Source: an uncultured bacterium (GTDB lineage: Bacteria; Krumholzibacteriota; Krumholzibacteriia; LZORAL124-64-63). From it: a stretch of 64,000 bases of DNA. Where the stretch lies: the NCBI GenBank assembly GCA_937864225.1, contig CALMJK010000005.1, forward strand, positions 456,212 through 520,211, read 5' to 3'. The notes under the pieces were generated by a model that worked only from the letters and a program-made list of their open reading frames with translations, was not told the origin of the DNA and ran no database searches. The translations under genes were made by a program, and so were the position numbers. The stretch's first letter is position 1, and each line of letters opens with the position of its first letter. Shown piece after piece: positions 19,770 to 42,345 of the stretch.

Positions 19770-19788
19770 GCGGCGCGGAGGCCTGGCC

Positions 19789-26614: not shown

Positions 26615-27496
26615 CTAGGATTTTAGGCTGGCGGGCGCGCGCCGCGCGGCCTGGAGCCGGGCGGCGCGGCCGAGCATCGCGATCGCCACGGCCAGCGCGG
26701 GCAGGGACGCGGCGAGGTACGTTGCGGCGGTCGCATCGAAGCCACCGGCGGCCGTCTCCTGCCCGTCGGCGCGCAGCATCATGGTCAGGGCCACGCCGTT
26801 GTGCGCGGCGTGGGCCGCGGCGCAAGCGGTGACCGAGCGCGTGAGCGCCCAGACACAGCCCATGAGCAGGCCGACGCCCACCAGTCCGAACAGGTACCAC
26901 GGTTCGCCGTGCAACAGCGCGAAGGCGAGGGCGGCCAGCACGGCCGCCGGCCAGGCGCCCCAGAGCCGCGCGGCGAGCCGCTGCAGGATCCCCCGGAAGA
27001 GCAATTCCTCCGCCACGGGAGCGACGAGCATGACCGCGGCGTAGGCCATAACGATCGCCGGGCCGGAGCGCGGCAACTGACGGGCGTACAACTCCTGCCA
27101 ATGCTGCGGCACGGGGTGCAGGCGCGTGGACAGGTCCGCCAGCACGGATGTCGGCGCGAGCGAGGCGAGGGCGGCCGCCACCGACCAAACCAGCACGCCG
27201 GCCGACGGGCGGTCGAGGGCGAAGTCTCGCCTCAGTGAGCCCCCGGTCCCGCGCGCGAGCAGCGCGCACGGCAGCAAGACTCCCAGCAGGCCGCCCGCCG
27301 CGACCGCCGCGAAGATCCGGTCGGTGAGCGCGAACGTCGCGGCCTGCACGCCGGCGTTCGCCGTCAGGCACGCCAGCGCCCAGACCAGCAGGCGCAGGCC
27401 GCCCCAGGTTCGCCACAGGTCCGGCCGGGGGCCGGGGCCACCGTTTCCTGCTGGGCCCGGCGGGTCGGGGCTTGGATCGCGCGGCTCGTCTTGCAT
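26615..27496 (-). CDS. CPBP family intramembrane glutamic endopeptidase (CAAX protease-like)
   Basis: Motifs EELLFRG, FALLHGE, HAAHNG in order. Confidence 0.85.
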   Translation of the reverse strand: MQDEPRDPSPDPPGPAGNGGPGPRPDLWRTWGGLRLLVWALACLTANAGVQAATFALTDRIFAAVAAGGLLGVLLPCALLARGTGGSLRRDFALDRPSAGVLVWSVAAALASLAPTSVLADLSTRLHPVPQHWQELYARQLPRSGPAIVMAYAAVMLVAPVAEELLFRGILQRLAARLWGAWPAAVLAALAFALLHGEPWYLFGLVGVGLLMGCVWALTRSVTACAAAHAAHNGVALTMMLRADGQETAAGGFDATAATYLAASLPALAVAIAMLGRAARLQAARRAPASLKS

Positions 27497-27612
27497 GACC
27501 TGGAACGTCCCGGATGGGGGTCAGACCCCCTTGGCAGGGGGCGCGCCAGCGCCTAAGATGCCACGGTCCGCGACAGGGCGCCAGGCGGCAACGGCCGCGG
27601 GAAGGGAGGGGT

Positions 27613-28356
27613 ATGCCCCGCAAGAGCGCGCAACGCTCGATCCAGGCCGTCATCTTCGATCTCGACAACACCCTCTACGATTTCCTCGGGGCGAAGGACC
27701 AGGCGATCCGGGCCGCGATCGATGCCATGATCGACACCGGACTGCCCCTGACGCCCGAGCAGGCGCGGGAGCGGATCGACCGCATCTATCGCGACAAGGG
27801 CATCGAGTACCAGAAGGTGTTCGATGCCTTCCTGCACGAGGTCCTCGGCGAGATCGACGACCGGATGCTGGCCGCGGCGGTGGTGGGCTACCGGCGTTCC
27901 CGCGACGGCACGCTGGTGCTCTATCCGCACGTGCTGCCCACGCTCACCCGGCTGCAAAAGGAGGGCTACCGCCTGGCCGTGCTGAGCGACGCGCCGCGCT
28001 ACGAGGCCTGGATCCGCCTGTGCATGCTGCGCTTGCACCACGTCTTCGACCTGGTGCTGACCTTCGACGACACGGGCATCCGCAAGCCCAGCCCCGCGGG
28101 CTTCCGGCTGGCCCTCAAGCGCCTGGGGCTGGAGCCCCGGCAGGCCGTGATGGTGGGGGACTGGCCCGAGCGCGACATCGTCGGGGCGAAACGGGCCGGG
28201 ATCCACACCGTCTACGCGCGCTATGGCGACGCGCCGGGCCCGGATCGGCCCTCGCCGCAGGCCGGCTCCGGCGCGGACTTCGAGATCGACGACCTGCTGC
28301 AACTGCTCGACGTGCTCAACCGGCTCAACGCGGGCGAGGGAGGCGAGGGCGGGTGA
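27613..28356 (+). CDS. HAD-IA family hydrolase
   Basis: VIFDLDNTLYDF, VLSDAP, KPSPAGF, MVGDW…D motifs; GGGAGGGG RBS before ATG 27613. Confidence 0.85.
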   Translation: MPRKSAQRSIQAVIFDLDNTLYDFLGAKDQAIRAAIDAMIDTGLPLTPEQARERIDRIYRDKGIEYQKVFDAFLHEVLGEIDDRMLAAAVVGYRRSRDGTLVLYPHVLPTLTRLQKEGYRLAVLSDAPRYEAWIRLCMLRLHHVFDLVLTFDDTGIRKPSPAGFRLALKRLGLEPRQAVMVGDWPERDIVGAKRAGIHTVYARYGDAPGPDRPSPQAGSGADFEIDDLLQLLDVLNRLNAGEGGEGG

Positions 28357-29933
28357 GAGTCGCGACGGCTGGCGAAATGGCCGCCATCGACCGCGACACC
28401 ATCGCGGGCGGCGTGCCAGGCAGCGAGCTGATGGAGCGGGCGGGCCGCGAGATCGTGCGCGCCGCGCTGGATCTCTTCCCCGAACTCGCTCCTCCCGCCG
28501 GCGTCGCCATCTGCTGCGGCAAGGGCAACAACGGGGGCGACGGTCTGGTCATGGCGCGGCTGCTGGACAGCCTCGGCTTCGCCGTGCGCGTGATGCTGCT
28601 GGCGCTGCCGGAGGATCTGTCCCCCGACGCGCGGCTCAACCTCGATCGTCTGCCGCCCGGCGTGCCGGTGATCGCGGTGCCGCCCGAGGAATGGAGCGAG
28701 CGTTGGCTGGCCATGTGCGGCGAATCGGAGCTGGCGGTGGACGCCGTGCTGGGCACCGGCGTCAAGCTGCCCCTGACGCCGCCGTACGCGGCGCTCTGCG
28801 CCGCTTTCGCCCGCGTGCCGACGCCGGTGCTGAGCGTCGACATCCCGTCGGGCGTGGCCGGCGACAGCGGGCGCGTCGACCCGGTGGCGGTGCGCGCCGA
28901 CGCCACGGTCACGGTGGGACTGCCGAAGCTCGGGCTGCTGCTGCCGCCGGGACGCGATCACATCGGCGACCTGGCGGTCGTCGACATCGGCTTCGACGCC
29001 GCCCTCGTGCGCGCGCGGACGGCCGACCGGCACTGGCTGGCGCCGGACGAGCTGGCGGATCTGCTGCCGCCGCGTCCCACCGACGGTCACAAGTACCTTT
29101 TCGGCGCCTTGCTCGTGCTGGCCGGCTCGCGCGCCTACGGCGGCGCGGCCGCCCTGGCCGGCCTGGGCGCCTTGCGCTCCGGCGCGGGCCTGGTCACGGT
29201 GGCGGCGCCGGCGCCGCTCGAAACGCCGCTGCGGATCGCGCTGCCGGAGGCGTTGATCGCGCCCCTGGCGGCGACCGCGGCCGGCACCGTGGCGCCGTTG
29301 CCGCCGTCGGACGTCGCGCGCCTGCTCGACAGGCGCCACGCGGTGGCGGTGGGGCCGGGTTTGGGCGAGGATCCGGCGACCGACGCTTGGGTCGTGGATT
29401 TCCTCGCCGGCCTGAAGCAGCCGGCGGTCGTGGACGCCGATGCCCTTTCCGCCTTCGCGAGGCTGGGCAGGACGCCCGCCTTCGGTTCGTCCGAGGTGGT
29501 GGTCACGCCCCACGCCGGGGAGCTCGCGCGCTTGGTCGGCGTGCGGCCGGCCGAGGTGGAGCGGCGCCGACTCGAGCTGGCGCCGGAGCTGGCGGCGCGC
29601 TGGCGGGCCGTGGTGCTGCTCAAGGGTTCGCCCACGCTCATCGCGACGCCTGACGGCGCGGTGGCGATCAACCACACGGGACACGACGCGCTCGCCCACG
29701 CCGGGACCGGCGATGTGCTGACGGGCCTGATCGGCGGCCTGCTCGCCCAGGGCTGCGCGGCGCGGGACGCGGCGCTGCTCGGCGCATGGCTGCACGGTCG
29801 GGCAGGCGAGACGGCCGCGGCCGGCCGCTCCAGGCGGTGCGTCCTGGCGCGCGAGGTGGCCGACGCCCTCCCCGACGCCTACGCGGACCTCGAGGCCGTC
29901 GCGGACGCCGACCGCCCGCGGCGCGGGCGGTGA
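28353..29933 (+). CDS. nnr: Bifunctional NAD(P)H-hydrate epimerase / ADP-dependent dehydratase
   Basis: YjeF-N (ICCGKGNNGGDGLVMAR) + YjeF-C (GHKY…LLKGSPT…GTGDVLTGLIGGLLAQG); GTG overlaps HAD stop (GTGA). Confidence 0.85.
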   Translation: MRVATAGEMAAIDRDTIAGGVPGSELMERAGREIVRAALDLFPELAPPAGVAICCGKGNNGGDGLVMARLLDSLGFAVRVMLLALPEDLSPDARLNLDRLPPGVPVIAVPPEEWSERWLAMCGESELAVDAVLGTGVKLPLTPPYAALCAAFARVPTPVLSVDIPSGVAGDSGRVDPVAVRADATVTVGLPKLGLLLPPGRDHIGDLAVVDIGFDAALVRARTADRHWLAPDELADLLPPRPTDGHKYLFGALLVLAGSRAYGGAAALAGLGALRSGAGLVTVAAPAPLETPLRIALPEALIAPLAATAAGTVAPLPPSDVARLLDRRHAVAVGPGLGEDPATDAWVVDFLAGLKQPAVVDADALSAFARLGRTPAFGSSEVVVTPHAGELARLVGVRPAEVERRRLELAPELAARWRAVVLLKGSPTLIATPDGAVAINHTGHDALAHAGTGDVLTGLIGGLLAQGCAARDAALLGAWLHGRAGETAAAGRSRRCVLAREVADALPDAYADLEAVADADRPRRGR

Positions 29934-29939
29934 ACCGGC

Positions 29940-30950
29940 GTGCGGGTGCTCGGCATCGAAACGAGCTGCGACGATACCAGCGTGGCCCTCTATGACGAGG
30001 CGAGGGGCGTCGTGGCCAACCTCGTCTCGTCACAGCTCGATCTTCACGAGCCGTTCGGGGGCGTGGTGCCGGAACTCGCTTCGCGGGCGCACCTGGTCAA
30101 CCTTTTGCCGATGATCGACCATCTCCTCGCCCGCCAGTCGCTGCGCCTGCGCGATCTGGACGGCGTCGCCGTCACGGCCGGCCCTGGTCTCATCGGCGCC
30201 CTGCTGGTCGGGCTGTCCACGGCCAAGGCGATCGCTTTCGGCGCGGGCCTGAAGCTGATCGGCGTGCATCACATCGAGGGGCACATCCTGGCCAACGCGC
30301 TCTCGGGGCCGCTCGTCCTGCCGGCGGCGGTCCTGGTCGTCTCGGGCGGCCACACCGAAGTGGTCATGATGGAGGCGGTCGGCCGCTACGAGAGGCTCGG
30401 CGCGACGCTCGACGACGCGGCGGGCGAGGCGTTCGACAAGACGGCCCAACTGCTGGGCTTGCCGTATCCGGGAGGCCCGGCGATCGACCGGGCCGCCGAG
30501 GGCGGGCGTTCGGGCCGTTTCCGGTTTCCCCGGCCGATGCTCGACGACGCGCGCGTCGTGTTCAGCTTCAGCGGCCTCAAAACGGCCGTGCGGCTCGCGG
30601 CCGCCGGTCTGCCTCGGCCCCTGTCGCCGGAGGATGTCGCGGACCTGGCCCGGGAAACACAGGAGGCGATCGTCGAGGTTCTCGTCGCGCGGCTGTTGCA
30701 GGCCGCCCGGCAGCGACGCGCGCGCGCCGTGTACCTGGCGGGAGGGGTGGCGGCCAACCGGCGCCTGCGCGCCGCGACCGCCGCGGCGGCCCGGGACGCC
30801 GGGCTGCATTTCCTGCCACTGCAGCCGGCATACTGCACCGATAATGCCGCGATGATCGCCTATGCCGGTTGGTGCCGGTTGGCCCACGGCCAGGCGGACG
30901 GCTGGGATCTGGACAGTTTTGCCCGCGCTCCCGTGGTTTCCTGGCGCTGA
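29940..30950 (+). CDS. tsaD: tRNA N6-adenosine threonylcarbamoyltransferase
   Basis: MRVLGIETSCDDTSVAL…HHIEGH…SGGHTE Kae1/TsaD signatures. Confidence 0.9.
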   Translation: MRVLGIETSCDDTSVALYDEARGVVANLVSSQLDLHEPFGGVVPELASRAHLVNLLPMIDHLLARQSLRLRDLDGVAVTAGPGLIGALLVGLSTAKAIAFGAGLKLIGVHHIEGHILANALSGPLVLPAAVLVVSGGHTEVVMMEAVGRYERLGATLDDAAGEAFDKTAQLLGLPYPGGPAIDRAAEGGRSGRFRFPRPMLDDARVVFSFSGLKTAVRLAAAGLPRPLSPEDVADLARETQEAIVEVLVARLLQAARQRRARAVYLAGGVAANRRLRAATAAAARDAGLHFLPLQPAYCTDNAAMIAYAGWCRLAHGQADGWDLDSFARAPVVSWR

Positions 30951-31100
30951 CAGGCCCTTCTCTTGCCCGTCGTGCCCCGTGCCGGCCCTTTGGCTCCCGC
31001 AGATCCTCCCATGGCATGCAAATTGCCCAATCGGGCCGGAAATGCCAACGGACGCGGCCAATGCATCAGTTTGCACTCCCAACCGGTTTCGGGGGCGGGC

Positions 31101-32087
31101 ATGAGCACGGGTCGAAAGATCCTCGTCGTCGATGACGAACCCCACATCCGCAAGATCCTGCAGTTCCTGCTGACCCAGGAGGGGTTCGACGTCGTCCTGG
31201 CCGAGAACGGCGTGGTCGCGCTGGAGAAGGTGGCGGAGTCGACGCCCGACCTGGTTCTGCTCGACGTGATGATGCCCAAAATGGACGGCTTCACGGTCTT
31301 GCAGCACCTGCGCGAGAACGTGCGCACGAGCTGGGTGCCCATCATCATGCTCACGGCCAAGGGGGAGAGCGCCGAGAAGGTCCGGGGCCTGCGCGGCGGC
31401 GCCAACGACTACCTGACCAAACCTTTCAATCACGACGAACTGATGCTGCGGATGCGCAACATGCTCGACTGGAGCCAGGCCCAGCGCGACGCCAATCCGC
31501 TGACGGGATTGCCCGGCAACCGCGCCATCGAGCAGGAGATGCAGCGGCGCACGCAGGTCGGGCGGCCGTTCAGCTTCCTGTATCTGGACATCGACAATTT
31601 CAAGAGCTTCAACGACTACTACGGTTACTCGCGCGGGGACCAAGCCATCACCTTCCTGGCGCGGGTGCTGGTGGAGTCGGTCGCCGCGGTCCAGGACGGC
31701 GGCGCCTTCATCGGCCACGTCGGGGGCGACGATTTCATCCTGATCAGTTCGCCCGCCTGCTCCGACGAGGTGGCCCAGCGCATCATCGAGAGCTTCGATG
31801 CGGGCGTCGTCGAGCTCTACGATCCGGCCGATCGCGAGCGGGGCTACATCCAGGTGCGGAACCGGGCGGGCCTGGAGCGCACCCTGCCGCTCATCACGTT
31901 GACCATCGCCCTTGTTTCGGACGCAACCTGCCAAGCGCAGCACATCGCCCGCCTGAGCGACATCGCCGCGGAGCTGAAAGCCTACGGCAAGACGATCACC
32001 GGCAGTTGCGTCGTTCACGAGCGCCGTCTGCCCAGCGAAACGCCAGCCGTGACCACCGTGACCAACGGCGGCAAGGATACGCGCTGA
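31101..32087 (+). CDS. Response regulator: REC domain fused to GGDEF-like domain with GGDDF signature and no RxxD I-site
   Basis: REC: VVDDEP…LLDVMMPKMDG…TAKGE…TKPF; GGDEF fold: NPLTGLPGNRA…LDIDNFKSFNDYYGYSRGDQ…HVGGDDFILIS. Confidence 0.85.
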   Translation: MSTGRKILVVDDEPHIRKILQFLLTQEGFDVVLAENGVVALEKVAESTPDLVLLDVMMPKMDGFTVLQHLRENVRTSWVPIIMLTAKGESAEKVRGLRGGANDYLTKPFNHDELMLRMRNMLDWSQAQRDANPLTGLPGNRAIEQEMQRRTQVGRPFSFLYLDIDNFKSFNDYYGYSRGDQAITFLARVLVESVAAVQDGGAFIGHVGGDDFILISSPACSDEVAQRIIESFDAGVVELYDPADRERGYIQVRNRAGLERTLPLITLTIALVSDATCQAQHIARLSDIAAELKAYGKTITGSCVVHERRLPSETPAVTTVTNGGKDTR

Positions 32088-32091
32088 GCGT

Positions 32092-35067
32092 TTGCTGCCC
32101 GATGTCCGACGAGGGCGGGAGCCGTCAGTGGAACGCCTTTTCGACAGTCGCGACTTCCTGCTGAGGCAGCTGCGTTGGGCGGAGCTGACGGTGGGCTTGG
32201 TCGTCGTGCTCGTCTCGCGCGAGCTCGCCGATTTCCCTTTCCCGCTGCTGCCGGTGCTGATTCTCTTCGCGGGCGCCTTCGGGCTGCAGGCGTGCCTGGT
32301 GCTGCTGACCCGATCCTGCGCGGCGTCTTTGCCCGTTCTGCCCATCCTGGTCGCGGACGCGGCGACGTGGCTGCCGCTGCTGGCGCTCACCGGCGGCGCG
32401 GCCAGCCCATATCCCTTTTTTCTGCTGTTTCCCGCCGCCCACGTTGGCCTGCTGGCCGCGACGCTGCGCGCCGGCCTTTGCGCCACGGGGGTCCTGCTCG
32501 GTCTGTTCGCCGCGACGGTCGCCGTGCGCTGGCCCGGCGAAATCGCCGCGCCGCCCGATGGCGGATTGGTGCTGGGGATCACGCTGCTGCTGGGCGTCCT
32601 GCTGTCCTCGGTGACCTATCTCGTGCGGACCGCCCGCAGCACGCTGCCGCCCGGCTGGGTGGCCTTGCCGGAACCGGTCGAGAACCTGGCGCAGCGGGCC
32701 GCCGGCGAAACCGGTCTCATCCTGGGGGAGAACGGCGACCTGCCCGACCTGCTCGAGGAGGCCGTGCTGGCGCTGACGCGCATCCCGGGCGTCGTCTTCG
32801 CGGCCGCCGTCACGGCGCCCGGGTGGCCGGCTTCGGCGCGCCTCGGCGGCGAGGCCGCCGGCCCCAAGCGCTGCATCGTCTCAGGCGAGGGCCATCTGTG
32901 GCCGCAATGGTTCGATCTGCCGCGCGAAGCGGCGGTTTTCTTCGATCTGGTCGAACACGACCCGGAACAGCCGTTCGTGGCCGGCGCGGCCGACGCGCTG
33001 CGCAAGATCCATTTCCCACTCACGGCCGGCGCGCAATTCGACCGCTGGCTGATGGCGCCGTTCGGCCACCGCGACGAAGCCGGCCTGGTCGTGCTGGTGG
33101 GCATGCGCTCGCGAGAGGCCGACCCGGCCTACGTGCGCCTGACGCTGGCTCACCTCGACAGCCAGATCGCGCCGCTTCTGGCGGCGAGCGGCAACCTCGC
33201 GCGGCTGCGGGGCGAGCTGGACAGCCTGCACGCCGAGAACGAGACCCTGGCGCGAATCAACAAGATGCAGAGCGACTTCGTGGCCGTGGCGAGCCATGAG
33301 CTGAAGACGCCGCTCACCGCGATCACCGCCTACGTCGAAGCCCTGCAACGGAACTGGGGGCGGCCGGATTTCCGGCAAGCCGAGGATTTCATGGGGATCA
33401 TCCGCGAAGAAGCCGGGCGGCTGCTGCGGATGGTCAACCGCATTCTGGACTTTTCGCGCCTCGAGTTCGGCCAGCGCCTGCTGAACCGGCGGGTGATGGA
33501 CATCGAACCTCTCTTGCGCGACACGCTGCGCGCGATCGAGCCGCTGGCCGTCCAGAAACGGCAACGCCTGTCCATTGAATGTCCGCCACTCTTGCCGCGC
33601 GTGGAGATCGACGAGGATCTGATCCGCCAGGTCATGGTCAATCTCGTCAACAACGCCGTCAAATACACGCCCGACGGCGGATCGATCACCGTGCGCGTGA
33701 GCGAGGACGCCGCGACGGTGCGCGTGGAAGTGCAGGACAACGGCGCGGGCATCGCCGCCGAAGAGTTGCACCGCATCTTCCGCCAGTTCTACCGGGCGGG
33801 CGGCGCTAGCGAGACCGTGGAGGGTTTCGGGCTGGGCCTGTCGATCGTCAAGAACATCATCGATCTGCACGGCGGACACATCGACGTGCAGAGCGAAGTG
33901 GGGCGGGGCTCGACGTTCGTGGTGCACTTGCCCAAGGAGCACCACCTGAACCCGGTCACCGCCGCGATTCTGGGCGATCTCACCACGCGACCGCAATTCC
34001 AGCAGCTGCTCCGTTTGACCGTGCGCATGGTCGCCGAAATGACCGAATCGAAGATCGTGTCGCTGATGCTGCTCGATCGGGAGGGACGCAGCCTGGTCGT
34101 GCAGTCGGCTTACGGGCTGAACGAATCCATCGTCAAGAGCGCGCACGTGACCATCGGCAAGGGCATCGCGGGCAAAGTGTTGCAATCGGGCCGGCCTTTG
34201 CTGGTCAAGGATGTCGAAAAGGACGGGCTGCTTGCGACGAACAACCGCGGCCAGTACGAGACCAATTCGCTGGTGTCGGTGCCGCTGAAGATCGAGGACA
34301 GGGTCGTCGGCGTCATCAACGTCAACAACAAGGTCTCCGGCCTGCCGTTCGCCGAGGACGACCTGGTGCTCGTGACGACGCTGGCGGACAAGGTCTCCGC
34401 CGCCCTCGCCGAGGCGATGAAGGTCGATTCCTCGCAGCGGCGCGTCGAGAAGATCGTCGACGCGCTGCAGGCCCTGATCGTCATGAAACGCAAGGCCGTG
34501 CCCACGGCCACGCCGCTGGCCCTGCGGCTGATCGTGCAGACGGCGCGGCGGTTGGGCTTGTCGCCGTCGGAGATCCAGCGCCTCCAGTACGTGGCTTCCA
34601 TGCACGACGTCGGCATGGTGACCGTCGACGGCGAGATCCTCGCCAAGTGCGGTCCTCTCACCGACGATGAGCGCGACGAGGTCGGCCAGCATCCGGAACA
34701 GGGCGTGACCCTGATGCAGCCGTTGCTGCAGGCGCCCGACATGGACAGCATCATCATGGCCCACCATGAGCGCCCCGATGGGCGCGGCTATCCGCTGGGG
34801 CTGCGGGGCGGCGACATCCCCGTCGGCGCGCGCATTCTGGCCGTTGTGGACGCCTTCTTCGCGATGGTGCAGCGACGGCCGTGGCGAGCGCGCTCCTCGG
34901 TGCCCGACGCGGTCGCCGAATTGCGCGCCAACGCGGGCTGCCAATTCGATTCGCCGGTCGTGACGGCCTTCGTCGCGATTCTCCAGCAAGAGGGACTGCT
35001 CACGAGCGACAGGCCGGCGGTGGCCCAGCCGGCGGGCGCTCCCGCGGGCGGCGGCGGGGAGGGTTGA
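32092..35067 (+). CDS. Hybrid sensor: multi-TM / GAF-like / HisKA / HATPase_c / GAF / HD-GYP (intact HD…HHExxDGxGYP)
   Basis: H-box ASHELKTPLTAI; N/G boxes VNLVNNAVKYT…DNGAGIA…GFGLGLSI; GAF; HD-GYP: SMHDVGM…HPEQG…HHERPDGRGYP…VVDAFFAM; TTG start per track (alt GTG ~32138). Confidence 0.85.
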   Translation: MLPDVRRGREPSVERLFDSRDFLLRQLRWAELTVGLVVVLVSRELADFPFPLLPVLILFAGAFGLQACLVLLTRSCAASLPVLPILVADAATWLPLLALTGGAASPYPFFLLFPAAHVGLLAATLRAGLCATGVLLGLFAATVAVRWPGEIAAPPDGGLVLGITLLLGVLLSSVTYLVRTARSTLPPGWVALPEPVENLAQRAAGETGLILGENGDLPDLLEEAVLALTRIPGVVFAAAVTAPGWPASARLGGEAAGPKRCIVSGEGHLWPQWFDLPREAAVFFDLVEHDPEQPFVAGAADALRKIHFPLTAGAQFDRWLMAPFGHRDEAGLVVLVGMRSREADPAYVRLTLAHLDSQIAPLLAASGNLARLRGELDSLHAENETLARINKMQSDFVAVASHELKTPLTAITAYVEALQRNWGRPDFRQAEDFMGIIREEAGRLLRMVNRILDFSRLEFGQRLLNRRVMDIEPLLRDTLRAIEPLAVQKRQRLSIECPPLLPRVEIDEDLIRQVMVNLVNNAVKYTPDGGSITVRVSEDAATVRVEVQDNGAGIAAEELHRIFRQFYRAGGASETVEGFGLGLSIVKNIIDLHGGHIDVQSEVGRGSTFVVHLPKEHHLNPVTAAILGDLTTRPQFQQLLRLTVRMVAEMTESKIVSLMLLDREGRSLVVQSAYGLNESIVKSAHVTIGKGIAGKVLQSGRPLLVKDVEKDGLLATNNRGQYETNSLVSVPLKIEDRVVGVINVNNKVSGLPFAEDDLVLVTTLADKVSAALAEAMKVDSSQRRVEKIVDALQALIVMKRKAVPTATPLALRLIVQTARRLGLSPSEIQRLQYVASMHDVGMVTVDGEILAKCGPLTDDERDEVGQHPEQGVTLMQPLLQAPDMDSIIMAHHERPDGRGYPLGLRGGDIPVGARILAVVDAFFAMVQRRPWRARSSVPDAVAELRANAGCQFDSPVVTAFVAILQQEGLLTSDRPAVAQPAGAPAGGGGEG

Positions 35068-35453
35068 TGGCCCAGCGCGTTTTGATCGTCGATGACGAAG
35101 CGCCGCTCGTGAACCTGCTCGCGCAGGCCTTGAGCGACCATCGATTCCAGGTCGCCAGCGCGCGCGACGGCGTGGACTGCATGAACAAGGTGGCGACCTT
35201 CAAGCCCGACGTCGTCGTGATGGACGTGATGATGCCCCGGCTGGACGGGGTGGACGCCACGCGGCTGATCCGGCGCAACCGCAGCTGGAGCGACGTGATC
35301 ATCATCGCCCTGTCGGCGCGGTCGGACCCCGCCTCGCGGGACCAGATCATCCAGGCCGGCGCGGACCTGTTCGTGAGCAAACCGTTCTCCATCCAGCGGC
35401 TGATCGGGCAGATCCAACGGCTGCTCGTCGCGCGGGCGCGACCGGCAGGCTAG
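35067..35453 (+). CDS. Single-domain response regulator (CheY-like)
   Basis: ATG overlaps upstream stop (TGATG); LIVDDE…VVMDVMMPRLDG…ALSARSD…VSKPF. Confidence 0.85.
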   Translation: MAQRVLIVDDEAPLVNLLAQALSDHRFQVASARDGVDCMNKVATFKPDVVVMDVMMPRLDGVDATRLIRRNRSWSDVIIIALSARSDPASRDQIIQAGADLFVSKPFSIQRLIGQIQRLLVARARPAG

Positions 35454-35467
35454 GAGCGAAGCACTCG

Positions 35468-38400
35468 ATGGTGCCCGAAACGGGAGCGAGACTCGGCAGC
35501 GGAGTGGGACCGTTGGTGGCGGCGGTCGACGTCGGGGTTCATCAACTGCTCCTGATCGGCTTGGCGCTTGGGCTGGCCTTCATAGGACGCCGGACGCGGA
35601 CACGCGCGGGACGGCCAGCGCACGGCCGGCTGTTCGCGGCCGGCGTTTTCCTGGCCGCGCTCGCCGCCGTCCGTCTGCTGGCCGCGCTGGCGACGTGGGG
35701 GACGGCTCCCGCGGCGGCGCTCTCCCTCGCCGCCCTGGAACTGGGCGGAGCGCTTTGGCTGCTCGACGCGTGGCGGCGTCTGCGCGCCGACGGCGCGCTG
35801 GGCGGCGGTTGGTTGGCTGGCGCAGGCGCGCTGGCGGCCGTCGCGGCCGGTGCCGCCATCGCGGCCGTGGCTGCCGGAGGCGGCGGCTCCGGCGCGGCCC
35901 TGGCGAGCGCTTGCCGCGCCCTGGCGCAGGGGCTGTTCCTCGCGGCTCCCCTGTTCTGGTGCGCCCGGCTGTGGGCGCGCGAGCAGCGCGAAGACAGCAC
36001 GGCCTGCCGAGACTTGCTCGAGGCGGCCAGAAAAGAACGGGACTTGGCGGCCCGGCAACGCGACGAGGCCCGCCGCGCGGCCGAGGACGTCGAACACACG
36101 CTGGAGGGCCAGCGGGAACAGGCGAAGCTGCTGGCTCGCCGGGCTTCCACCGTCGAGCGCATTCTGCAGCTCTCGGCGCAGATCAACGCCACGAGATCGC
36201 TCAACGCCGTGCTCCAGCAGGTGGCCGAGGCCGTGCGGGAATCGCTCGGCTTCCGCGTGGTGCTGGTGCGGATCTGGTCCCCCTCGGCGCAGGTTTTCGA
36301 GGCGCGGGCGTTCGCCGGCATATCCGAGGAGGGGAAGGCGCACCTCACGGCGCGACAGGTGGTCATGGACGAATATCGCACCATGACCCAACCGCGCTTT
36401 CGCAGATCGCAGAGCTACTTCATCAGCCATATGGACAAGGATTGGGAGGAGGCCACCGCTGGGGGCTGGACCACGAGTCTGGGACAGCGCGCGGACGACG
36501 AGTGGCACGAGGACGACATGCTGATCGTGCCGCTCCTGTCCGCGGGCGACGAGGTGCGGGGCTATCTGAGCGTGGACGATCCGGTCGACCGGCGGCTGCC
36601 GTCGCTGGAGGTCATTCGCCAGCTCGAGATCTTCGCCAGCCAGGCCACGACCGCCATCGAATCGGCGGAATTGTACGACCGGCTGGCCCGCAACAATCTC
36701 GAGCTCTCGCGCGCTTCGCAGCAGCTGCAGAATCTGAACGAGCTCAAGAGCAATTTCGTGGCGAACGTCAGCCACGAGCTGCGCACGCCGCTCACCTCCA
36801 TCAAGGCCTACACCGAGACGCTCTGTCACAACCACGCCGCCATGCCCGAGGAAACGAGGCGCGAGTTTCTGGAGGTCATTCACGCCGAGAGCGAGAAGAT
36901 CACCGCCATCATGAACGACATCCTCGACCTGGCGCGGGGCGATGACCCGTCCAGGCGCGCCCGCCGCACGGACAGCGATCTGTGCCAATTGATTCGCGGC
37001 GCCGTCGCGAACATCGAGGCCGCGCGGGCGGAGAAGAGCCTGGAGCTGCGACTCGATCTGCCGCCCGAAAGCGTGCGCCTGAGCGTCGATCCGAAGCAGC
37101 TGGAACAGGTCGTCGAGCACCTGCTCAACAACGCCATAAAGTTCACGTCCTCGGGCGGGAGCATTCGCGTCGCCTTGCAGGACGGCATGACCGCCGTGCG
37201 GCTCGTGGTCGAGGATAGCGGCATCGGCATCCCGGAGAACGAGCTCGAGCAGATTTTCGATCGCTTCTATCAAGTGGACGGCTCCTCCACGCGCGAGCAT
37301 GGCGGACAAGGCGTCGGACTCGCCATCTGCCGCGACATCGTGCTCTGGCACGAGGGTCGGATCTGGGCCGAGAATCTGCAGCCGCGAGGCGCGCGACTGG
37401 TCGTCTCCTTGCCCCGCTCCGGCGAGGTCGTGCACCGGGGGGTCGCGAAGGAGTCCTTGCCGAGCTACAACGATCCGCAAGAATTCATGGAAAAGCTCAT
37501 GCACTGGATCGGCGAGACGGTCGGCGTGCGCAACATCTCCTTGATGGTCCCGGACGAAAGCGGGGAAAACCTTGTGATCGAGGCCGCCGTGGGCCTGTCC
37601 GAGAGCGTGGTGCAGAGCACCCGGCTCCGTCGCGGCGAAGGGATCGCGGGCAAGGTGTGGGTCAGCGGTCGCGCCTTGCTGGTCGGCGACGTGGTGGCCG
37701 ATGGCCGCTTCGGCAAGCGGGTGAACGCCCCCCAGTACTCCACGCCCTCCCTGCTGAGCGTGCCGGTGATCGACGGCATCGAATGCCACGCCGTGCTCAA
37801 CGTGAACAACCGTATCGACGGCAAGCCGTTCTCGGCGGACGAGCGGCTGTTGATCGAGGCTTTGGCGCCGCGAATCGCGTACCTCCTGCGTCGGCGCGCG
37901 GCGTGGCAGGCGCAAGCGCGCGAACTCGGCGCGTTGCGCGACACGATGCGCGCGGCGGTCGCCGTCCGTCGGGAGCGCCATGACAGCTGGACGGACCTGG
38001 TGCAGGAGATCTGCATGGCCACGGCCCGCCGGATCAAGCTGCCTCAGGAGGATCTCGAGGCCCTCTCGCTGGCGTTGCAGGTATACGACCTGGGTCTGGT
38101 GCGGTTGAGCGAGTCGCTGCTGCGCAAGGCGGCGCCGCTCACGGACGAGGAAAAGGAACTGATCCGGCACCACGTGCATCACACGCTCGATCTGCTCTCT
38201 CCGCTCGACGTGCCGTCGAAGGTGCGCCAGCTCATCCTGCACCACCATGAACGCTTCGACGGCGGCGGCTACCCCGACGGCCTGGCGGGCGAGGCGATCC
38301 CGGTCGGCGCCCGTCTGCTGGCCTTGTCCGACGCCCTCAACGCCATCCTGCAGGGAAGGGCTTGGCGTCCGGCGTGCCGGCTGGAGCAGGCGCTGGTCGA

Positions 38401-38596
38401 GATCGAGAAACACGTCGGTGCCCAGTTCTGCCCCCGGCTGGCCGCGGCCTTCCTGGCCGAGGCCGGCGCGAGCGCCCGGGCGCTGTGCGCGGCGGATGAG
38501 CGCGTGCCGGACGCCGCCGTTTCGCCCTTGCCGGAAACGCCTCCGCCAGCGGGTGAAGCCGTGCCGGTCTCAAGCGGCGTGGGCTGCGGCCGATAA
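35468..38596 (+). CDS. Paralogous hybrid sensor: multi-TM / GAF / HisKA / HATPase_c / GAF / HD-GYP-like with degenerate first metal motif (YDLG instead of HDxG) but intact HHHERFDGGGYP
   Basis: H-box VSHELRTPLTSI; N/G boxes LLNNAIKFT…DSGIGIP…GQGVGLAI; two GAF regions; C-terminal LQVYDLGL…HHVHH…HHHERFDGGGYP. Confidence 0.85.
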   Translation: MVPETGARLGSGVGPLVAAVDVGVHQLLLIGLALGLAFIGRRTRTRAGRPAHGRLFAAGVFLAALAAVRLLAALATWGTAPAAALSLAALELGGALWLLDAWRRLRADGALGGGWLAGAGALAAVAAGAAIAAVAAGGGGSGAALASACRALAQGLFLAAPLFWCARLWAREQREDSTACRDLLEAARKERDLAARQRDEARRAAEDVEHTLEGQREQAKLLARRASTVERILQLSAQINATRSLNAVLQQVAEAVRESLGFRVVLVRIWSPSAQVFEARAFAGISEEGKAHLTARQVVMDEYRTMTQPRFRRSQSYFISHMDKDWEEATAGGWTTSLGQRADDEWHEDDMLIVPLLSAGDEVRGYLSVDDPVDRRLPSLEVIRQLEIFASQATTAIESAELYDRLARNNLELSRASQQLQNLNELKSNFVANVSHELRTPLTSIKAYTETLCHNHAAMPEETRREFLEVIHAESEKITAIMNDILDLARGDDPSRRARRTDSDLCQLIRGAVANIEAARAEKSLELRLDLPPESVRLSVDPKQLEQVVEHLLNNAIKFTSSGGSIRVALQDGMTAVRLVVEDSGIGIPENELEQIFDRFYQVDGSSTREHGGQGVGLAICRDIVLWHEGRIWAENLQPRGARLVVSLPRSGEVVHRGVAKESLPSYNDPQEFMEKLMHWIGETVGVRNISLMVPDESGENLVIEAAVGLSESVVQSTRLRRGEGIAGKVWVSGRALLVGDVVADGRFGKRVNAPQYSTPSLLSVPVIDGIECHAVLNVNNRIDGKPFSADERLLIEALAPRIAYLLRRRAAWQAQARELGALRDTMRAAVAVRRERHDSWTDLVQEICMATARRIKLPQEDLEALSLALQVYDLGLVRLSESLLRKAAPLTDEEKELIRHHVHHTLDLLSPLDVPSKVRQLILHHHERFDGGGYPDGLAGEAIPVGARLLALSDALNAILQGRAWRPACRLEQALVEIEKHVGAQFCPRLAAAFLAEAGASARALCAADERVPDAAVSPLPETPPPAGEAVPVSSGVGCGR

Positions 38597-38653
38597 TTTC
38601 CGCAGGATAGGTCGCGAGGCCGGCGCGGGTGCCCGGCCAAGGGAGGTCGCGCG

Positions 38654-39028
38654 TTGCGCAAGATCCTGGTCTGCGACGACGAGTCCAGCATCCTGAACAT
38701 CCTCGACTTCAGCCTCAGCGCCGAGGGCTACCGGGTGATCCAGGCCGCGGACGGCGACGCCGCCCTGGCGCTGGCGAGCGCGGAGCAGCCGGATCTGATC
38801 ATTCTCGACGTCATGATGCCCAAGCGCAGCGGCTTCGAGGTCTGCCGCCTGCTGAAGGCGCAGCGGGTCACCGCGGACATACCGGTGATCCTGCTCACCG
38901 CGCGCGGCAGCCGCGACGACCGCGAGCTGGGGCGCGAAGCCGGCGCCGATATCCACATGACCAAGCCCTTCAGCCCGCAGCGCCTGCTCGACAAGGTGCA
39001 CCTGCTGCTCGGCGTGCGGCACGGCTGA
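38654..39028 (+). CDS. Single-domain response regulator (CheY-like)
   Basis: TTG start after AAGGGAGG RBS; LVCDDE…LIILDVMMPKRSG…LTARGS…MTKPF. Confidence 0.85.
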   Translation: MRKILVCDDESSILNILDFSLSAEGYRVIQAADGDAALALASAEQPDLIILDVMMPKRSGFEVCRLLKAQRVTADIPVILLTARGSRDDRELGREAGADIHMTKPFSPQRLLDKVHLLLGVRHG

Positions 39029-39030
39029 GC

Positions 39031-39070
39031 CCGTGCCGGCGCTCCCGCGTCGCGACGCCCGCCGGCACGG
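39031..39070 (+). terminator. 11-bp GC stem-loop (CCGTGCCGGCG…CGCCGGCACGG) immediately after RR stop; no U-tract
   Basis: Inverted repeat read directly. Confidence 0.4.
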
Positions 39071-39145
39071 CCGGCGGGCGTTGCCGTTTCGCGGCCCGCG
39101 CGCTACCATCCGCCGGCGCCGCGCCGGCGCGGAAAGGCGGGCCAG

Positions 39146-41188
39146 GTGCCTCGTCCCGATTCGCTCGCGGCGGGTCCGGGCACCTTGCTGGTCGAGGTGG
39201 CCGTCCCGGTTCCGCTCGATCAATTTTTCACGTACAGGTGGACCCCCGGCGGCGCGGACGAGAGTCCGCCCGCGCGCGGAGATCTCGTCGTGGCGCCGTT
39301 CGGGCGGCGCCGTCGCGTGATCGGCCTCGTGGTCGCGGTCCGCCCGGCGGGCGAGACCGAGGTGACCGTCGGCGGCCACGACATTCGTCCCCTCGAGCGC
39401 GTGCTGCCGCCGGCCTATCGGCTGGCGAGCGATCGTCTGCGGCTGGCGGAGTGGCTGGCCGCCTACTACGCGCTGCCGCTCGGCGAGGTCGTGCCGCTGT
39501 TCCACCCCCCGGATCCCGGCACCCGCCGGCGCGCCAGCCGCGCGCCCACTCCGGCTTACCCGCTTCAGGACGGGACCGCCGAGATCGTGCTGTCGGCCGC
39601 GCAGCAAGCGGCCACCAGCGCCGCCTTGCAGCAACTCGACGACGGACACTTCGGCGTGGTGATGCTGCACGGCATCACGGGCAGCGGCAAGACCGAGGTC
39701 TACCTGCAGGTCATCGGCGAAGCGCTCGCCCGGGGCCGCGGCGCGCTGTTTCTATTGCCGGAGATCGCGCTCACCCCGCAGACCTTGGCGCGCATCGTGG
39801 CGCGCTTTGGGCCGGTGGCCGCGACCGTGCACAGCGGTTTGTCGTCCGGCGAACGTTGCCGCGTGCACGAGGCGGCGGCGGCCGGCGAAGTGCGCCTCGT
39901 CGTGGGCCCGCGGTCGGCGCTCTTCGCGCCGGTGCGGGATTTGGGCGTGATCGTCGTCGACGAAGAGCACGAGACCTCCTACAAGCAGGAGGAGAAGCCG
40001 CGTTACCACGCGCGCCACGCGGCGCTGGCGAGGGGGCGGGAAGCCGGGGCGGTCGTGCTGTTGGGATCGGCCACGCCCGATCTGGAGAGCTGGGACAACG
40101 GCCGGCGCGGCGCGTATCGTCTGTTCACCCTCACCGACCGTCCCGTCGGGGTGCTGCCGGACGTCGAGGTCGTGGACCTGCGGGGGGAACAGGCGCCGGA
40201 CGGTTTTTCGCCGCGCCTGACGGAGGCGCTCGCGGCGGAGCTGAACGAAGGGCGTCAGGCCATCCTCTACTACAACCGCCGCGGCTTCGCGCGCTCGCTG
40301 CAGTGCGCCGCCTGCGGGCGGGCCGATGCCTGCCCGAGTTGCGACATCGGTCTGGTCTACCACCTGCGCCCGCGCCGACTGCTGTGCCATTACTGCGGCT
40401 TCTCGCGCGCCGCGCCCGTGGCGTGCTCCCACTGCGGCGGCCGGGATTTCTTGCCGGCGGGCGGGGGAACGGAGCGCCTCGAACTGAGCCTGCAGGCGAC
40501 GTTTCCGGGCGTGAAGGTGCTGAGACTCGATCAGGACACGACCCGCCGCCGCGGCAGCCACGCCCGGATCCTGGGCGCCTTCGCTGGCGCGCGGGCGCAG
40601 ATCCTGGTCGGGACCCAGATGGTGGCCAAGGGGCACCATTTCCCCGGCGTCGGCCTGGTGGGCGTGCTGGCGGCCGACGACGGGCTCACCTTGCCCGATT
40701 ATCGCGCGGACGAGCGTGCTTTCCAGCTGTTGACGCAGGTCGCCGGTCGCACCGGCAGGGTGCGACCGGGCCTGGTGATCTTCCAGTCGTGGCAGCCAGA
40801 TCACCCGATCGTGCGGTTGGCGGCGCACCACGACTACGCCGGGTTCGCCGAAGCGGAATTGGCCAACCGACGGGCGCTCGGGTATCCCCCGGCGCGACGG
40901 CTGCTGCGCATCGCGGTCGCGTCGCGGCGCGCGGCGGCGGCGCAGCAAGGCGTGGACGAACTCGCGGGTGTGCTGCGCGAGGGATTGACTGGCGGCGACC
41001 GGGAAGTGCTCGGGCCGGCGCCCGGCGTGTTCGCACGCCTGCAGGATCGCCACCGCTGGCAGGTGCTGATCAAGGGCACGCTCGGGAGCGCGCAGAAGCG
41101 CTGGCTGGCCGCTTGCGCGAAGGCCACCGAGGCGCGGGTCGGCGGCGTGGAAGTGCTGATCGACGTGGACCCCGTGGGTCTGTACTGA
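39146..41188 (+). CDS. priA: Primosomal protein N' (replication restart helicase)
   Basis: Walker A GITGSGKT, DEEH, Cys4 Zn-finger CAACGRADACPSCD…CHYCG…CSHCGG, helicase C motifs. Confidence 0.9.
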   Translation: MPRPDSLAAGPGTLLVEVAVPVPLDQFFTYRWTPGGADESPPARGDLVVAPFGRRRRVIGLVVAVRPAGETEVTVGGHDIRPLERVLPPAYRLASDRLRLAEWLAAYYALPLGEVVPLFHPPDPGTRRRASRAPTPAYPLQDGTAEIVLSAAQQAATSAALQQLDDGHFGVVMLHGITGSGKTEVYLQVIGEALARGRGALFLLPEIALTPQTLARIVARFGPVAATVHSGLSSGERCRVHEAAAAGEVRLVVGPRSALFAPVRDLGVIVVDEEHETSYKQEEKPRYHARHAALARGREAGAVVLLGSATPDLESWDNGRRGAYRLFTLTDRPVGVLPDVEVVDLRGEQAPDGFSPRLTEALAAELNEGRQAILYYNRRGFARSLQCAACGRADACPSCDIGLVYHLRPRRLLCHYCGFSRAAPVACSHCGGRDFLPAGGGTERLELSLQATFPGVKVLRLDQDTTRRRGSHARILGAFAGARAQILVGTQMVAKGHHFPGVGLVGVLAADDGLTLPDYRADERAFQLLTQVAGRTGRVRPGLVIFQSWQPDHPIVRLAAHHDYAGFAEAELANRRALGYPPARRLLRIAVASRRAAAAQQGVDELAGVLREGLTGGDREVLGPAPGVFARLQDRHRWQVLIKGTLGSAQKRWLAACAKATEARVGGVEVLIDVDPVGLY

Positions 41189-41190
41189 GC

Positions 41191-41209
41191 CGGACGCAGA
41201 TTTCGTCCG
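41191..41209. terminator. Short bidirectional hairpin (CGGACG-N7-CGTCCG) between convergent priA and aroB
   Basis: Inverted repeat in the 26-nt convergent spacer. Confidence 0.35.
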
Positions 41210-41214
41210 CGCGC

Positions 41215-42345
41215 TCAGTCGCGCATGGCCTCGCGCAGCTCGGCGAGATCCACGCTCTCGTCCAGCCGGACGGCGCCGATGCCGGCCGGCAAGACCCAGC
41301 GCACCCGTCCGCCCAGCCGTTTCTTGTCGCCCGCGATCAGCCGCGCCAAGCGCGCGCGGGGCGGCAGCGCGGCGACGACCGGCAGGCCGCAGGCGCGCAG
41401 CAGGGCGTGGATCCGGCCCGCGTCAACGGCCGGGCAGAGGCCGCGGCGGGCGGCCAGCGCCGCCGCGGTCGCCATGCCGATCGCCACGGCTTCCCCGTGG
41501 GACCAGCCGCCCGCGCTCTCGATCGCGTGCCCGAGCGTGTGCCCCAGGTTCAGGGCGCGTCGCGGTCCCTGTTCGCGGAAATCGCGGCTTACGATCGCCG
41601 CCTTCACGCGCGCGGCGCGGGCGATCCAGGCGGGCCAAGGCAGGGCAAGGGCCGCGGATCCGACCCGATCCTCGCGGCCGCGACGTGGGCCGGCGAAGGC
41701 GCGCGCCAGCGAGGGGGCGTGCCGTTCGAGGTCGCGGAACAGACCGGGCGAGCCGATCACCGCTGCCTTGACCGCTTCGGCCAGCCCGCAGCGCCACTGG
41801 CGACGCGGCAGGGTCGCCAGGAAGCGGGGATCCGCGAGCACGTCCGACGCCGGATGGAAGGCGCCCACGCCGTTCTTGAGCATCCCGACATCGATGGCTG
41901 TCTTGCCGCCGATCGCGGCGTCGACCATGCCCAGCAGGGTCGTGGGCAGTGCCACGAAGCGGACTCCGCGCTGCCAGGTCGCGGCCGCCAGTCCAGCCAG
42001 GTCGAGCACGGCGCCGCCGCCGACGGCGACCAGCGTGCCGTCGCGCGGCAGCTGTCGCGCCGCCAGCCAACGCCAGACCTGCGCCAGGCGCGCCGCGCGC
42101 TTGGCCGCCTCGCCGCCGGGCACGAGCAACAGGGGCAGGGACGAGCCGTCGGCGGCGCGCAGGACGCGCCGCAGCGCCGGGGCGTGCGCCCGCCAGACGC
42201 CGCGATCCACGAGGGCGACGGCCGGCCCCGCGCCCAGGCGCGCGGGCAGTCCGTCGCGCGCGCCGGGGCTGAGCCAGTAGTCGCTTGTCCGCTCCGCCAG
42301 GCGGATGCGCAGCAGACGCTCGGGGGGGGGCTGCCGGTGTGTCAT
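41215..42345 (-). CDS. aroB: 3-dehydroquinate synthase
   Basis: …GGGAVLDLAG…LPTTLLGMVDAAIGGKTAID…NLGHTLGHAIE…; start taken at internal ATG (MTHRQ) 42345 rather than track 42549. Confidence 0.85.
   Translation of the reverse strand: MTHRQPPPERLLRIRLAERTSDYWLSPGARDGLPARLGAGPAVALVDRGVWRAHAPALRRVLRAADGSSLPLLLVPGGEAAKRAARLAQVWRWLAARQLPRDGTLVAVGGGAVLDLAGLAAATWQRGVRFVALPTTLLGMVDAAIGGKTAIDVGMLKNGVGAFHPASDVLADPRFLATLPRRQWRCGLAEAVKAAVIGSPGLFRDLERHAPSLARAFAGPRRGREDRVGSAALALPWPAWIARAARVKAAIVSRDFREQGPRRALNLGHTLGHAIESAGGWSHGEAVAIGMATAAALAARRGLCPAVDAGRIHALLRACGLPVVAALPPRARLARLIAGDKKRLGGRVRWVLPAGIGAVRLDESVDLAELREAMRD

Follow-up and report, generated by a model that had tools for sequence, protein, structure and literature searches.

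The RpfC/RpfG pathway couples a two-component phosphorelay to an HD-GYP domain, and proteins of the RpfG family are defined by a REC domain fused to the N-terminus of the HD-GYP. PmGH is a free-standing, soluble GAF-HD-GYP phosphodiesterase (PDB 4MCW) with all eight metal ligands and K225. Its H189A, H221A and K225A mutants essentially lose hydrolysis of cyclic di-GMP (c-di-GMP), E185A markedly reduces it, and mutants of the GYP motif or of R314/K317 retain most of the activity (PMC4159591). Xanthomonas RpfG has no equivalents of E185 and H189 (PMC4159591). In DvhD from Desulfovibrio vulgaris (dCache-PAS-HD-GYP, PDB 9RBZ/9RC0) the HD-GYP domain is non-catalytic, binds c-di-GMP as a switch and signals by splaying its stalk helices (PMC13090378). 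Kinases regulated by c-di-GMP are also known, namely SgmT (through a C-terminal GGDEF receptor domain), ShkA (through a pseudo-receiver) and CckA (PMC3509222, PMC6969517, PMC7010744). Here we analyse a five-gene cluster from an uncultured bacterium of the Krumholzibacteriota, in which GAF-HD-GYP modules are joined directly to two membrane sensor kinases, HK1 and HK2. It lies in a 64,000-nucleotide stretch (contig CALMJK010000005.1, positions 456,212 to 520,211), which we call the window and number from its first letter. No characterised protein is known to have an HD-GYP domain directly on a histidine kinase.

The cluster consists of five co-oriented genes on the + strand (31101-39028), as seen from the listing of open reading frames (ORFs), the frame-specific GC content at third codon positions (GC3) and Pfam. 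They encode a REC-GGDEF-type protein with a GGDDF motif (g1), HK1, the small receiver RR1, HK2 and a second small receiver, RR2. A first-pass annotation had proposed these five genes with the same content, and each was recovered by Pfam, the ORF listing and GC3; its feature ran to 39075, and the stop of the last gene is actually at 39028. HK1 (32092-35067, +) is a polytopic membrane sensor kinase of 991 aa when read from the first TTG. The gene callers on identical public contigs begin at 32128, the likely start, which gives 979 aa. Its Pfam domains are HisKA (aa 393-459), HATPase_c (507-616), GAF (636-772) and HD_5/HD (795-954). HK2 (35468-38596, +; 1042 aa, or 1027 aa from 35513) is also a membrane sensor kinase and is fused to a GAF-HD-GYP-like module, with a weak N-terminal GAF match followed by HisKA (aa 427-493), HATPase_c (541-650), GAF (669-804) and HD_5 (827-987). 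The domain order given earlier for both kinases therefore stands in Pfam, with the HD-GYP domain C-terminal to the kinase core within one ORF each. A frameshift or stop splitting these genes had been raised as the finding that would overturn this picture; we find that neither kinase is split and that all five genes are intact. An assembly chimera or hidden frameshift was likewise ruled out, since the identical HK1 protein occurs on 16 independent public contigs with the same neighbour genes, and intact orthologues are present in 11 loci.

We find that the fusion is rare. A word-indexed search with HK1 through 5.8 billion protein clusters returned about 44 clusters combining HisKA, HATPase_c and HD_5, most of them with GAF as well, and the earlier description of this architecture as uncommon is borne out by that count. 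All these clusters come from metagenomes or metagenome-assembled genomes and none from UniRef; the next matches are generic kinases that cover 23% of the query. HK1 residues 380-965 were also run exhaustively with HMMER through 1.84 billion representatives; of the best 150 matches, which reach down to about 290 bits, about 52 were kinase-HD-GYP fusions and the remainder giant multi-GAF kinases. When genome contigs were searched with the kinase alignment, the true relatives among the matches listed were only two (L008 and L009). In one database representative, P0055, a REC and an Hpt lie in between, making it a hybrid form. Candidate fusions in Solirubrobacterales, Pirellulales, Phycisphaerae and Chloroflexi were rejected; they are separate, adjacent kinase and HD-GYP genes, in the classical layout of a kinase beside an HD-GYP regulator. 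The text of a 2021 HD-GYP census describes REC-, GAF-, PAS-, DUF3391-, dCache- and MASE-linked forms; neither HisKA nor HATPase is named in that text, the architecture table aside, and seven mentions of histidine kinases in it belong to other contexts. An NCBIfam scan gave generic kinase and receiver matches only, far under the equivalog cut-offs. No named system therefore applies, in agreement with the first-pass annotation, which could assign no described pathway; an already common and characterised architecture, the other outcome that would have spoken against it, was not what we found, the fusion being rare and fitted by no curated equivalog model. By these searches the fusion appears to be not only rare but also one family.

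The cluster is kept in place in the relatives. Besides the window's own locus we compared the genomic surroundings of eight more homologues of HK1 or g1, and of two loci from the scan of genome contigs. The placing of the cluster between tsaD and priA recurs in all 11 related loci that we examined, with kinase identities as low as 33%. The complete order tsaD - REC-GGDDF - HK1 - RR - HK2 - RR - priA is present in six of them (L001, L005-L007, L088 and L091), and persists where HK1 identity is down at 38-41%, as well as on a contig of 3.84 Mb. L092 departs from it by one additional gene ahead of priA, and in L090, where the contig is cut upstream, the remaining order is the same. L008 and L089 have an additional 276-aa soluble kinase after the g1 gene and no receiver between the two large kinases. 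All sources with an organism name are Candidatus Krumholzibacteria or Krumholzibacteriia. The GC content of the cluster (0.67-0.70) is inside the usual range of the window, which is about 70% GC overall. The word "island" used for the cluster earlier is thus not apt: between tsaD and priA it forms a chromosomal block conserved by vertical descent, in housekeeping surroundings and of ordinary GC, and horizontal acquisition is ruled out by the synteny together with the composition. The cluster appears to be an old, vertically inherited block of an uncultured Krumholzibacteria lineage. We consider it very probable, from its sequence and conservation, that it is a real, functional and co-regulated module of two-component and cyclic-dinucleotide signalling.

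We next consider the HD-GYP tails, taking PmGH as the reference. The HD-GYP domain of HK1 (34474-34986, +; Pfam HD_5 E 7.9e-29) was aligned to PDB 9rbz, 4r8z and 4mcw and within its family; its motifs are MHDVGM (34600-34617), KCG (34645-34659), HHERPDGRGYP (34762-34794) and RPWR (34873-34893). In HK2 the HD-GYP-like domain (37946-38428, +) has VYDLGL (38081-38098, +), with Tyr aligned in place of the His of the HD dyad, followed by KAA, HHERFDGGGYP and RAWR. The equivalents of D222, H250, H276/H277 and D305 (D839, H867, H891/H892 and D920 in HK1) and the GYP motif are kept in both. H221 is kept in HK1 (H838) and lost in HK2. The KPG motif is reduced to KxG in HK1, and in HK2 its Gly is lost; RxY[K/R] takes the RPWR and RAWR forms. 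At the position of E185, the acidic residue of the trinuclear subgroup, neither family has a conserved acidic residue, and at that of H189 neither has a conserved His, the aligned residue being Ala, Thr, Val or Gly in HK1-type sequences and variable in HK2-type ones. K225 is Met in HK1 and Leu, Met or Ile in HK2. HK1 thereby retains six of the eight metal ligands and HK2 misses three.

These substitutions are shared by the family. HDxGM is present in 43 of 43 HK1-type sequences. Most HK2-type sequences, about 20 representatives, have [YF]DxG[LMI], with YD or FD at the dyad, and three HK2-like representatives retain HD; YD is found in all four syntenic HK2 orthologues that were aligned and in the representative P0044. 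The canonical HDxGK is absent from every fusion representative examined, none of which has Lys at the K225 position. In the family alignment HHExxDGxGYP, H867, D920 and RxW/YR are invariant or nearly so. The family thus seems to have its own active-site signature, HDxGM or YDxGL without an H189 or K225 equivalent. Judged by these alignments, the tails are shown to lack residues that PmGH needs for catalysis.

The first-pass annotation had taken the tails as an active c-di-GMP phosphodiesterase output, so that the kinases would be bifunctional, REC-GGDDF would be the opposing cyclase, and signals would set phosphorylation and c-di-GMP turnover together. The Pfam HD_5 and HD matches are strong, and HK1 retains HD, H867, HHE, D920, GYP, KxG and RxWR, as such a model would expect. 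There are active binuclear HD-GYP enzymes that have no E185 equivalent, and RpfG-like proteins may be able to do without one His. The purifying selection on the tails, described below, would also suit an enzyme. Against this, the whole fusion family has Met, Leu or Ile at K225 and no conserved His at H189, the positions where alanine essentially abolishes PmGH activity; in HK2, moreover, H221 is replaced by Tyr or Phe and KPG is without its Gly, and its H-site, which helps to hold the proposed nucleophile, would be essentially gone. The phosphodiesterase output is therefore not secure, as both families are without the H189/E185 equivalents and K225 and HK2 is also without H221, and we regard this model as unlikely though still worth serious weight.

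The tails are nonetheless clearly not decaying and are under purifying selection, because they are as conserved among orthologues as the ATPase domain (HD-GYP 55%, ATPase domain 57%, C-terminal GAF 62%); conservation is lowest in the N-terminal sensor parts (38-42%). Among solved structures the HD-GYP domain of HK1 is matched best by DvhD (PDB 9rbz, E 5.6e-21), in which a helical stalk moves to signal through a membrane protein. DvhD differs in having SQ for HD, a lost HH pair and no kinase core, whereas the present domains keep HH and D, and HK1 also HD. PmGH shares the GAF-helix-HD-GYP order (GAF E 1.8e-7; HD-GYP E 6.6e-17 and 6.9e-19); unlike PmGH, two (HK1) or three (HK2) ligands and K225 are missing here and the module is carried by a membrane kinase. 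Xanthomonas RpfG resembles the tails in its missing E185 and H189 equivalents, and the RpfC/RpfG pathway in the coupling of a phosphorelay to HD-GYP. In the present cluster, however, a GAF domain links the HD-GYP to the ATPase domain of the kinase, which it follows, and a small protein of its own serves as receiver; by Pfam the REC domains are separate genes, so the REC-HD-GYP fusion of the RpfG family is lacking. SgmT, ShkA and CckA are likewise sensor kinases with a c-di-GMP-binding element through which the messenger controls the phosphorelay, a control that would be predicted here; none of the three has an HD-GYP domain.

HK2 recalls PA2572 of Pseudomonas aeruginosa, in which Tyr also replaces the His of the HD dyad. 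PA2572 differs in being a response regulator (REC with YN-GYP) rather than a kinase fusion, and its motif is YN where HK2 has YD; it is reportedly regulatory rather than catalytic. Such proteins bring up the alternative that the tails are docking modules, whose invariant GYP region would recruit the GGDDF protein or the small receivers independently of nucleotide, much as reportedly happens between RpfG and GGDEF proteins and in the case of PA2572. The GYP motif is indeed invariant despite the lost catalytic residues, the GGDDF gene is always adjacent and is the most conserved of the cluster, a YN-GYP variant is documented in the literature, and the census text describes catalytically inactive RpfG-family proteins that regulate through protein-protein interactions. 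The retained H867, HH, D920 and RxW/YR, together with KxG in HK1, are metal or nucleotide ligands and not surface residues, which is a better fit to ligand binding, and we hold pure docking to be improbable. On the residues retained and lost, our preferred reading, put forward tentatively, is that the HD-GYP tails may be chiefly sensors or feedback elements rather than robust phosphodiesterases.

We also checked the kinase portions. HK1 has an N-terminal transmembrane region (32224-32634, +) of about 5-6 hydrophobic segments by a Kyte-Doolittle scan, to which no Pfam family corresponds, and then a cytoplasmic sensor domain (32647-33201, +). The GAF fold of the latter comes from structure prediction; hhalign of this region to GAF profiles gave no signal. 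The kinase core (33268-33939, +; Pfam HisKA E 6.5e-18, HATPase_c E 1.4e-32) has its phospho-acceptor H402 in SHELKTP (nt 33292-33312), with the N box at 33640-33666, the G1 box at 33736-33753 and the G2 box at 33823-33840. In a 13-sequence kinase alignment H402, N521, D549, G551, G553, G578, G580 and G582 are invariant. The C-terminal GAF domain (33997-34407, +; Pfam GAF_2 E 1.1e-17) has as its best solved relative 5w10, deposited as a cGMP-specific phosphodiesterase (E 3.6e-15), and also resembles GAF domains of other cyclic-nucleotide phosphodiesterases. This resemblance is a lead on the ligand of the GAF domain and does not amount to a test of it.

HK2 has at least three hydrophobic segments by hydropathy. 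On the + strand its transmembrane part is at about 35501-35977, the N-terminal GAF at about 36155-36667 (a weak match, hhalign E 7e-4), HisKA at 36746-36946, HATPase_c at 37088-37417 and the C-terminal GAF at 37472-37879. The phospho-acceptor is H436 in SHELRTP (Pfam HisKA E 1.1e-18, HATPase_c E 8e-29). From the DHp domain to the end of the HD-GYP, HK1 and HK2 share 35% identity across 572 aa (E 1e-102), which upholds the earlier view of them as paralogues; between their N-terminal sensor parts there is no sequence relationship. Pfam finds no REC domain within HK1 or HK2, and neither is a hybrid histidine kinase. These data show that both are sensor kinases of the HisKA type, that they are intact, and that each has a polytopic membrane region together with a cytoplasmic input domain of the GAF type. 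In the lineage of L008 and L089 the N-terminal GAF of HK1 is detectable from sequence. The additional kinase of these two loci lies at 6125-6955 in L008 (GC about 55%) and at 3972-4802 in L089; Pfam gives HisKA and HATPase_c for the L008 copy, and HATPase_c only was recorded for the L089 copy.

RR1 (35067-35453, +; 128 aa, Pfam E 6.8e-28) and RR2 (38654-39028, +; 124 aa, TTG start, Pfam E 2.6e-27) contain REC only. D10, D53 and K105 are invariant in these receivers, and at the Thr/Ser position the RR1 group has Ser where the RR2 group has Thr; both proteins are single-domain, CheY-like response regulators. The RR1 group also shares the motif DG[IV][DE]CMNK, which together with the Ser sets it apart from the RR2 group and from the REC domain of g1. 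The stop codon of HK1 (35065-35067) overlaps the ATG of RR1 (35067-35069) in the sequence GGT TGA TGG CC, the TGATG overlap that had been read there before. HK1 and RR1 overlap or are separated by no more than 10 nt in all eight loci that have the pair, which argues for coupled expression, and this layout shows RR1 as putatively translationally coupled to HK1. RR2 orthologues follow HK2 in 11 of the 11 loci that include the region downstream of HK2. Adjacency and the overlap with RR1 are suggestive, and no more than suggestive, of kinase autophosphorylation and phosphotransfer to the cognate receiver.

The remaining gene, g1 (31101-32087, +), encodes 328 aa with a REC domain at about nt 31119-31451 (Pfam E 2.6e-33) and a GGDEF-type domain at about nt 31497-32030 (E 2.6e-16). 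Its phospho-acceptor Asp55 is in LLDVMMP (nt 31257-31277), and D11, D12, D55, T85 and K107 of the REC domain are invariant. The AlphaFold2 model (mean predicted local distance difference test score, pLDDT, 86) matched WspR best in Foldseek (3bre, E 8e-22), then DgcR (6zxb) and PleD, with which g1 shares the REC-helix-GGDEF layout and fold. It differs from these three in having GGDDF (31722-31736, +; read from the sequence) where they have GG[D/E]EF, in its missing I-site and in a divergent C-terminal third. The RxxD I-site, an inhibitory site common in such cyclases though not required of them, was not found in g1; AVQD with a 4-residue insertion aligns to RAID of PleD. GGDDF stands unchanged in 5 of 5 syntenic orthologues and in 120 of 120 database homologues listed. 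Within the cluster conservation is highest for g1, which has more than 120 homologue clusters at 51-82% identity, and the two distant homologues that were checked both lie in the same gene cluster. D163, D165, N171, D172 and D180 are invariant in 52 sequences and align to PleD DIDFFKKINDTFGHDIGD, so that the metal-binding Asp (DIDNFK for DxDxFK) and the guanine-binding N171 and D180 are retained.

By the accepted A-site motif for active cyclases, [G/A/S]G[D/E]E[F/Y], g1 fails because of GGDDF, a motif commonly scored as inactive, and most degenerate motifs are inactive; a GGDDF enzyme, GSU1937, is active, as shown with an engineered fusion (PMC8835794). GSU1937 is thus like g1 in its GGDDF site and shows that such a site can be active, and differs as a membrane Hypr enzyme with Ser348, where g1 keeps Asp. 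For this reason a Hypr synthase of cyclic GMP-AMP (cGAMP) was ruled out for g1. One could suppose instead that g1 is not a cyclase but a phosphorylation-controlled sensor of GTP or another nucleotide, or an adaptor, and that the tails sense or degrade a messenger from elsewhere, possibly cGAMP. The motif outside the accepted set and the atypical C-terminal third of the GGDEF domain agree with this. Over more than 120 homologues, though, neither the motif nor the metal-binding Asp nor the guanine-binding residues vary, g1 has no I-site with which to bind c-di-GMP, and the specificity position is Asp rather than the Ser of Hypr cGAMP synthases; we rate a non-cyclase g1 as very unlikely. Describing g1 as cyclase-like, as was done earlier, was fair, given that GGDDF is invariant, not decayed, and found in one published active enzyme. 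From these residues we lean slightly towards g1 being an active cyclase.

Taken together, we favour, at a little short of even chances, a closed loop in which two two-component branches are wired to c-di-GMP and the tails act mainly as sensors of it. Signals at the membrane or GAF parts would set the balance of kinase and phosphatase activity, and phosphoryl groups would pass to both small receivers, RR1 and RR2, as well as to the REC domain carried by the GGDDF protein. This protein would dimerise as WspR and DgcR do and then make c-di-GMP. The HD-GYP tails would mainly bind c-di-GMP, HK2 with its YD as a non-catalytic receptor, and HK1, with HD and six of eight metal ligands, as at most a slow, RpfG-like hydrolase. 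Nucleotide binding would act in return, by way of the helical GAF/HD-GYP stalk, on the kinase core and so close the loop between phosphorelay and messenger; RR1 and RR2 would be diffusible outputs or phosphate sinks.

Several points weigh against this closed loop. The phosphotransfer partners, the cyclase activity and the nucleotide binding are all predicted from sequence. The GGDDF motif is outside the accepted active motif with an engineered fusion as its sole active precedent, and the C-terminal third of the g1 GGDEF domain lies outside the Pfam and PleD alignments. HK1 could be a real phosphodiesterase, because it has kept HD, the H250 and D305 equivalents and the HH pair, and because the census text reports robust hydrolysis by a Lysobacter RpfG very close to the Xanthomonas RpfGs, in which a key His is missing. 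The GAF domain before the HD-GYP may bind another ligand, for example a cyclic mononucleotide, and dominate the regulation. Co-transcription is suggested by spacing and synteny, and a promoter/terminator consensus scan over 29900-41300 was no better than chance, with one promoter-like and seven terminator-like matches versus 0.4 and 4.7 expected, none of them in an intergenic gap. An Rfam scan of the whole window found neither a c-di-GMP riboswitch nor any other family.

We also looked at the surroundings of the cluster. The upstream flank encodes an Rce1-like protease, a HAD hydrolase, NnrD/NnrE and TsaD, and the downstream flank PriA, 3-dehydroquinate synthase and a 2-oxoacid:ferredoxin oxidoreductase; elsewhere in the window are the DNA polymerase III delta' subunit, TatD, KsgA, SecDF and similar proteins. 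From a protein of about 1200 aa through the Rce1-like, HAD, NnrDE and TsaD genes the upstream block is syntenic in relatives, with HAD missing from L006 and L007. The mechanical 935-aa ORF at 27126-29933 (+) is too long; gene callers on an identical contig give a 526-aa NnrE/NnrD fusion (YjeF_N and Carb_kinase), preceded by the separate HAD hydrolase gene, which the 935-aa ORF overlaps in another frame. Further upstream (14173-23391, +) there is a 1597-aa kinase whose HAMP-PAS-HisKA-HATPase domains are confined to the last approximately 400 residues, the N-terminal part of about 1190 aa having no Pfam family. It is followed by a DUF4159 protein (18963-19769) and a 1213-aa ORF without a Pfam family; beyond these lie the genes for a TPR protein and for a protein of 425 aa without known function. 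ARAGORN called a 94-nt tRNA-Arg(TCG) at 24744-24837 (+), where Rfam has no tRNA even at E up to 1; by the offset from L001 the call falls within the unannotated gene of about 425 aa of the syntenic upstream block, and it is most likely a false positive. Two ORFs at 4640-6916 (758 aa) and 7653-8261 (202 aa), both +, have coding-like GC3 and no Pfam family at E up to 1e-5. In L091, on the 3.84-Mb contig, genes for CheB, CheD, an HDOD protein, CheY and CheX (1-2834) lie about 7-10 kb upstream of the cluster, which hints at a link to motility.

In summary, the parts (HisKA kinase, GAF, HD-GYP, REC and GGDEF) are textbook, and the way of joining them appears to be a new, lineage-specific architecture. 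The system resembles a merger of an RpfC/RpfG-type pathway, a PmGH-type GAF-HD-GYP and a WspR-type cyclase, and by comparison it appears to be a member of none of them, because REC is unfused to HD-GYP, the metal site is incomplete and the A-site motif is GGDDF. The HD/YD pair of paralogues on kinases with an invariant GGDDF partner is noteworthy, yet domain shuffling is common in signalling proteins. The automatic name "HD domain-containing phosphohydrolase" is probably misleading for these kinases. The five proteins form a compact, testable system. An active GGDDF protein would widen the accepted cyclase motif, with more than 120 natural sequences to draw on. Tails that sense c-di-GMP would represent a new class of receptor kinase and a second natural non-catalytic HD-GYP receptor, after DvhD.

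A bolder proposal, which we offer as a doubtful speculation, is that HD-GYP was recruited as the built-in c-di-GMP receptor of the kinase. HK1 and HK2 would then be toggled between their kinase and phosphatase modes by the messenger, made by the system's own phosphorylation-activated GGDDF cyclase; the loop, bistable or adaptive, would be complete in itself, and the HD/YD pair would serve as a "degrading sensor" and a "pure sensor". If true, kinases would here be controlled, and HD-GYP used, in a way without earlier description, and the fixed tsaD-priA position would mark a core lifestyle or cell-cycle regulator of the lineage. The cluster is kept in every relative examined, all of this uncultured lineage, and it is therefore probably central to decision-making in these bacteria.

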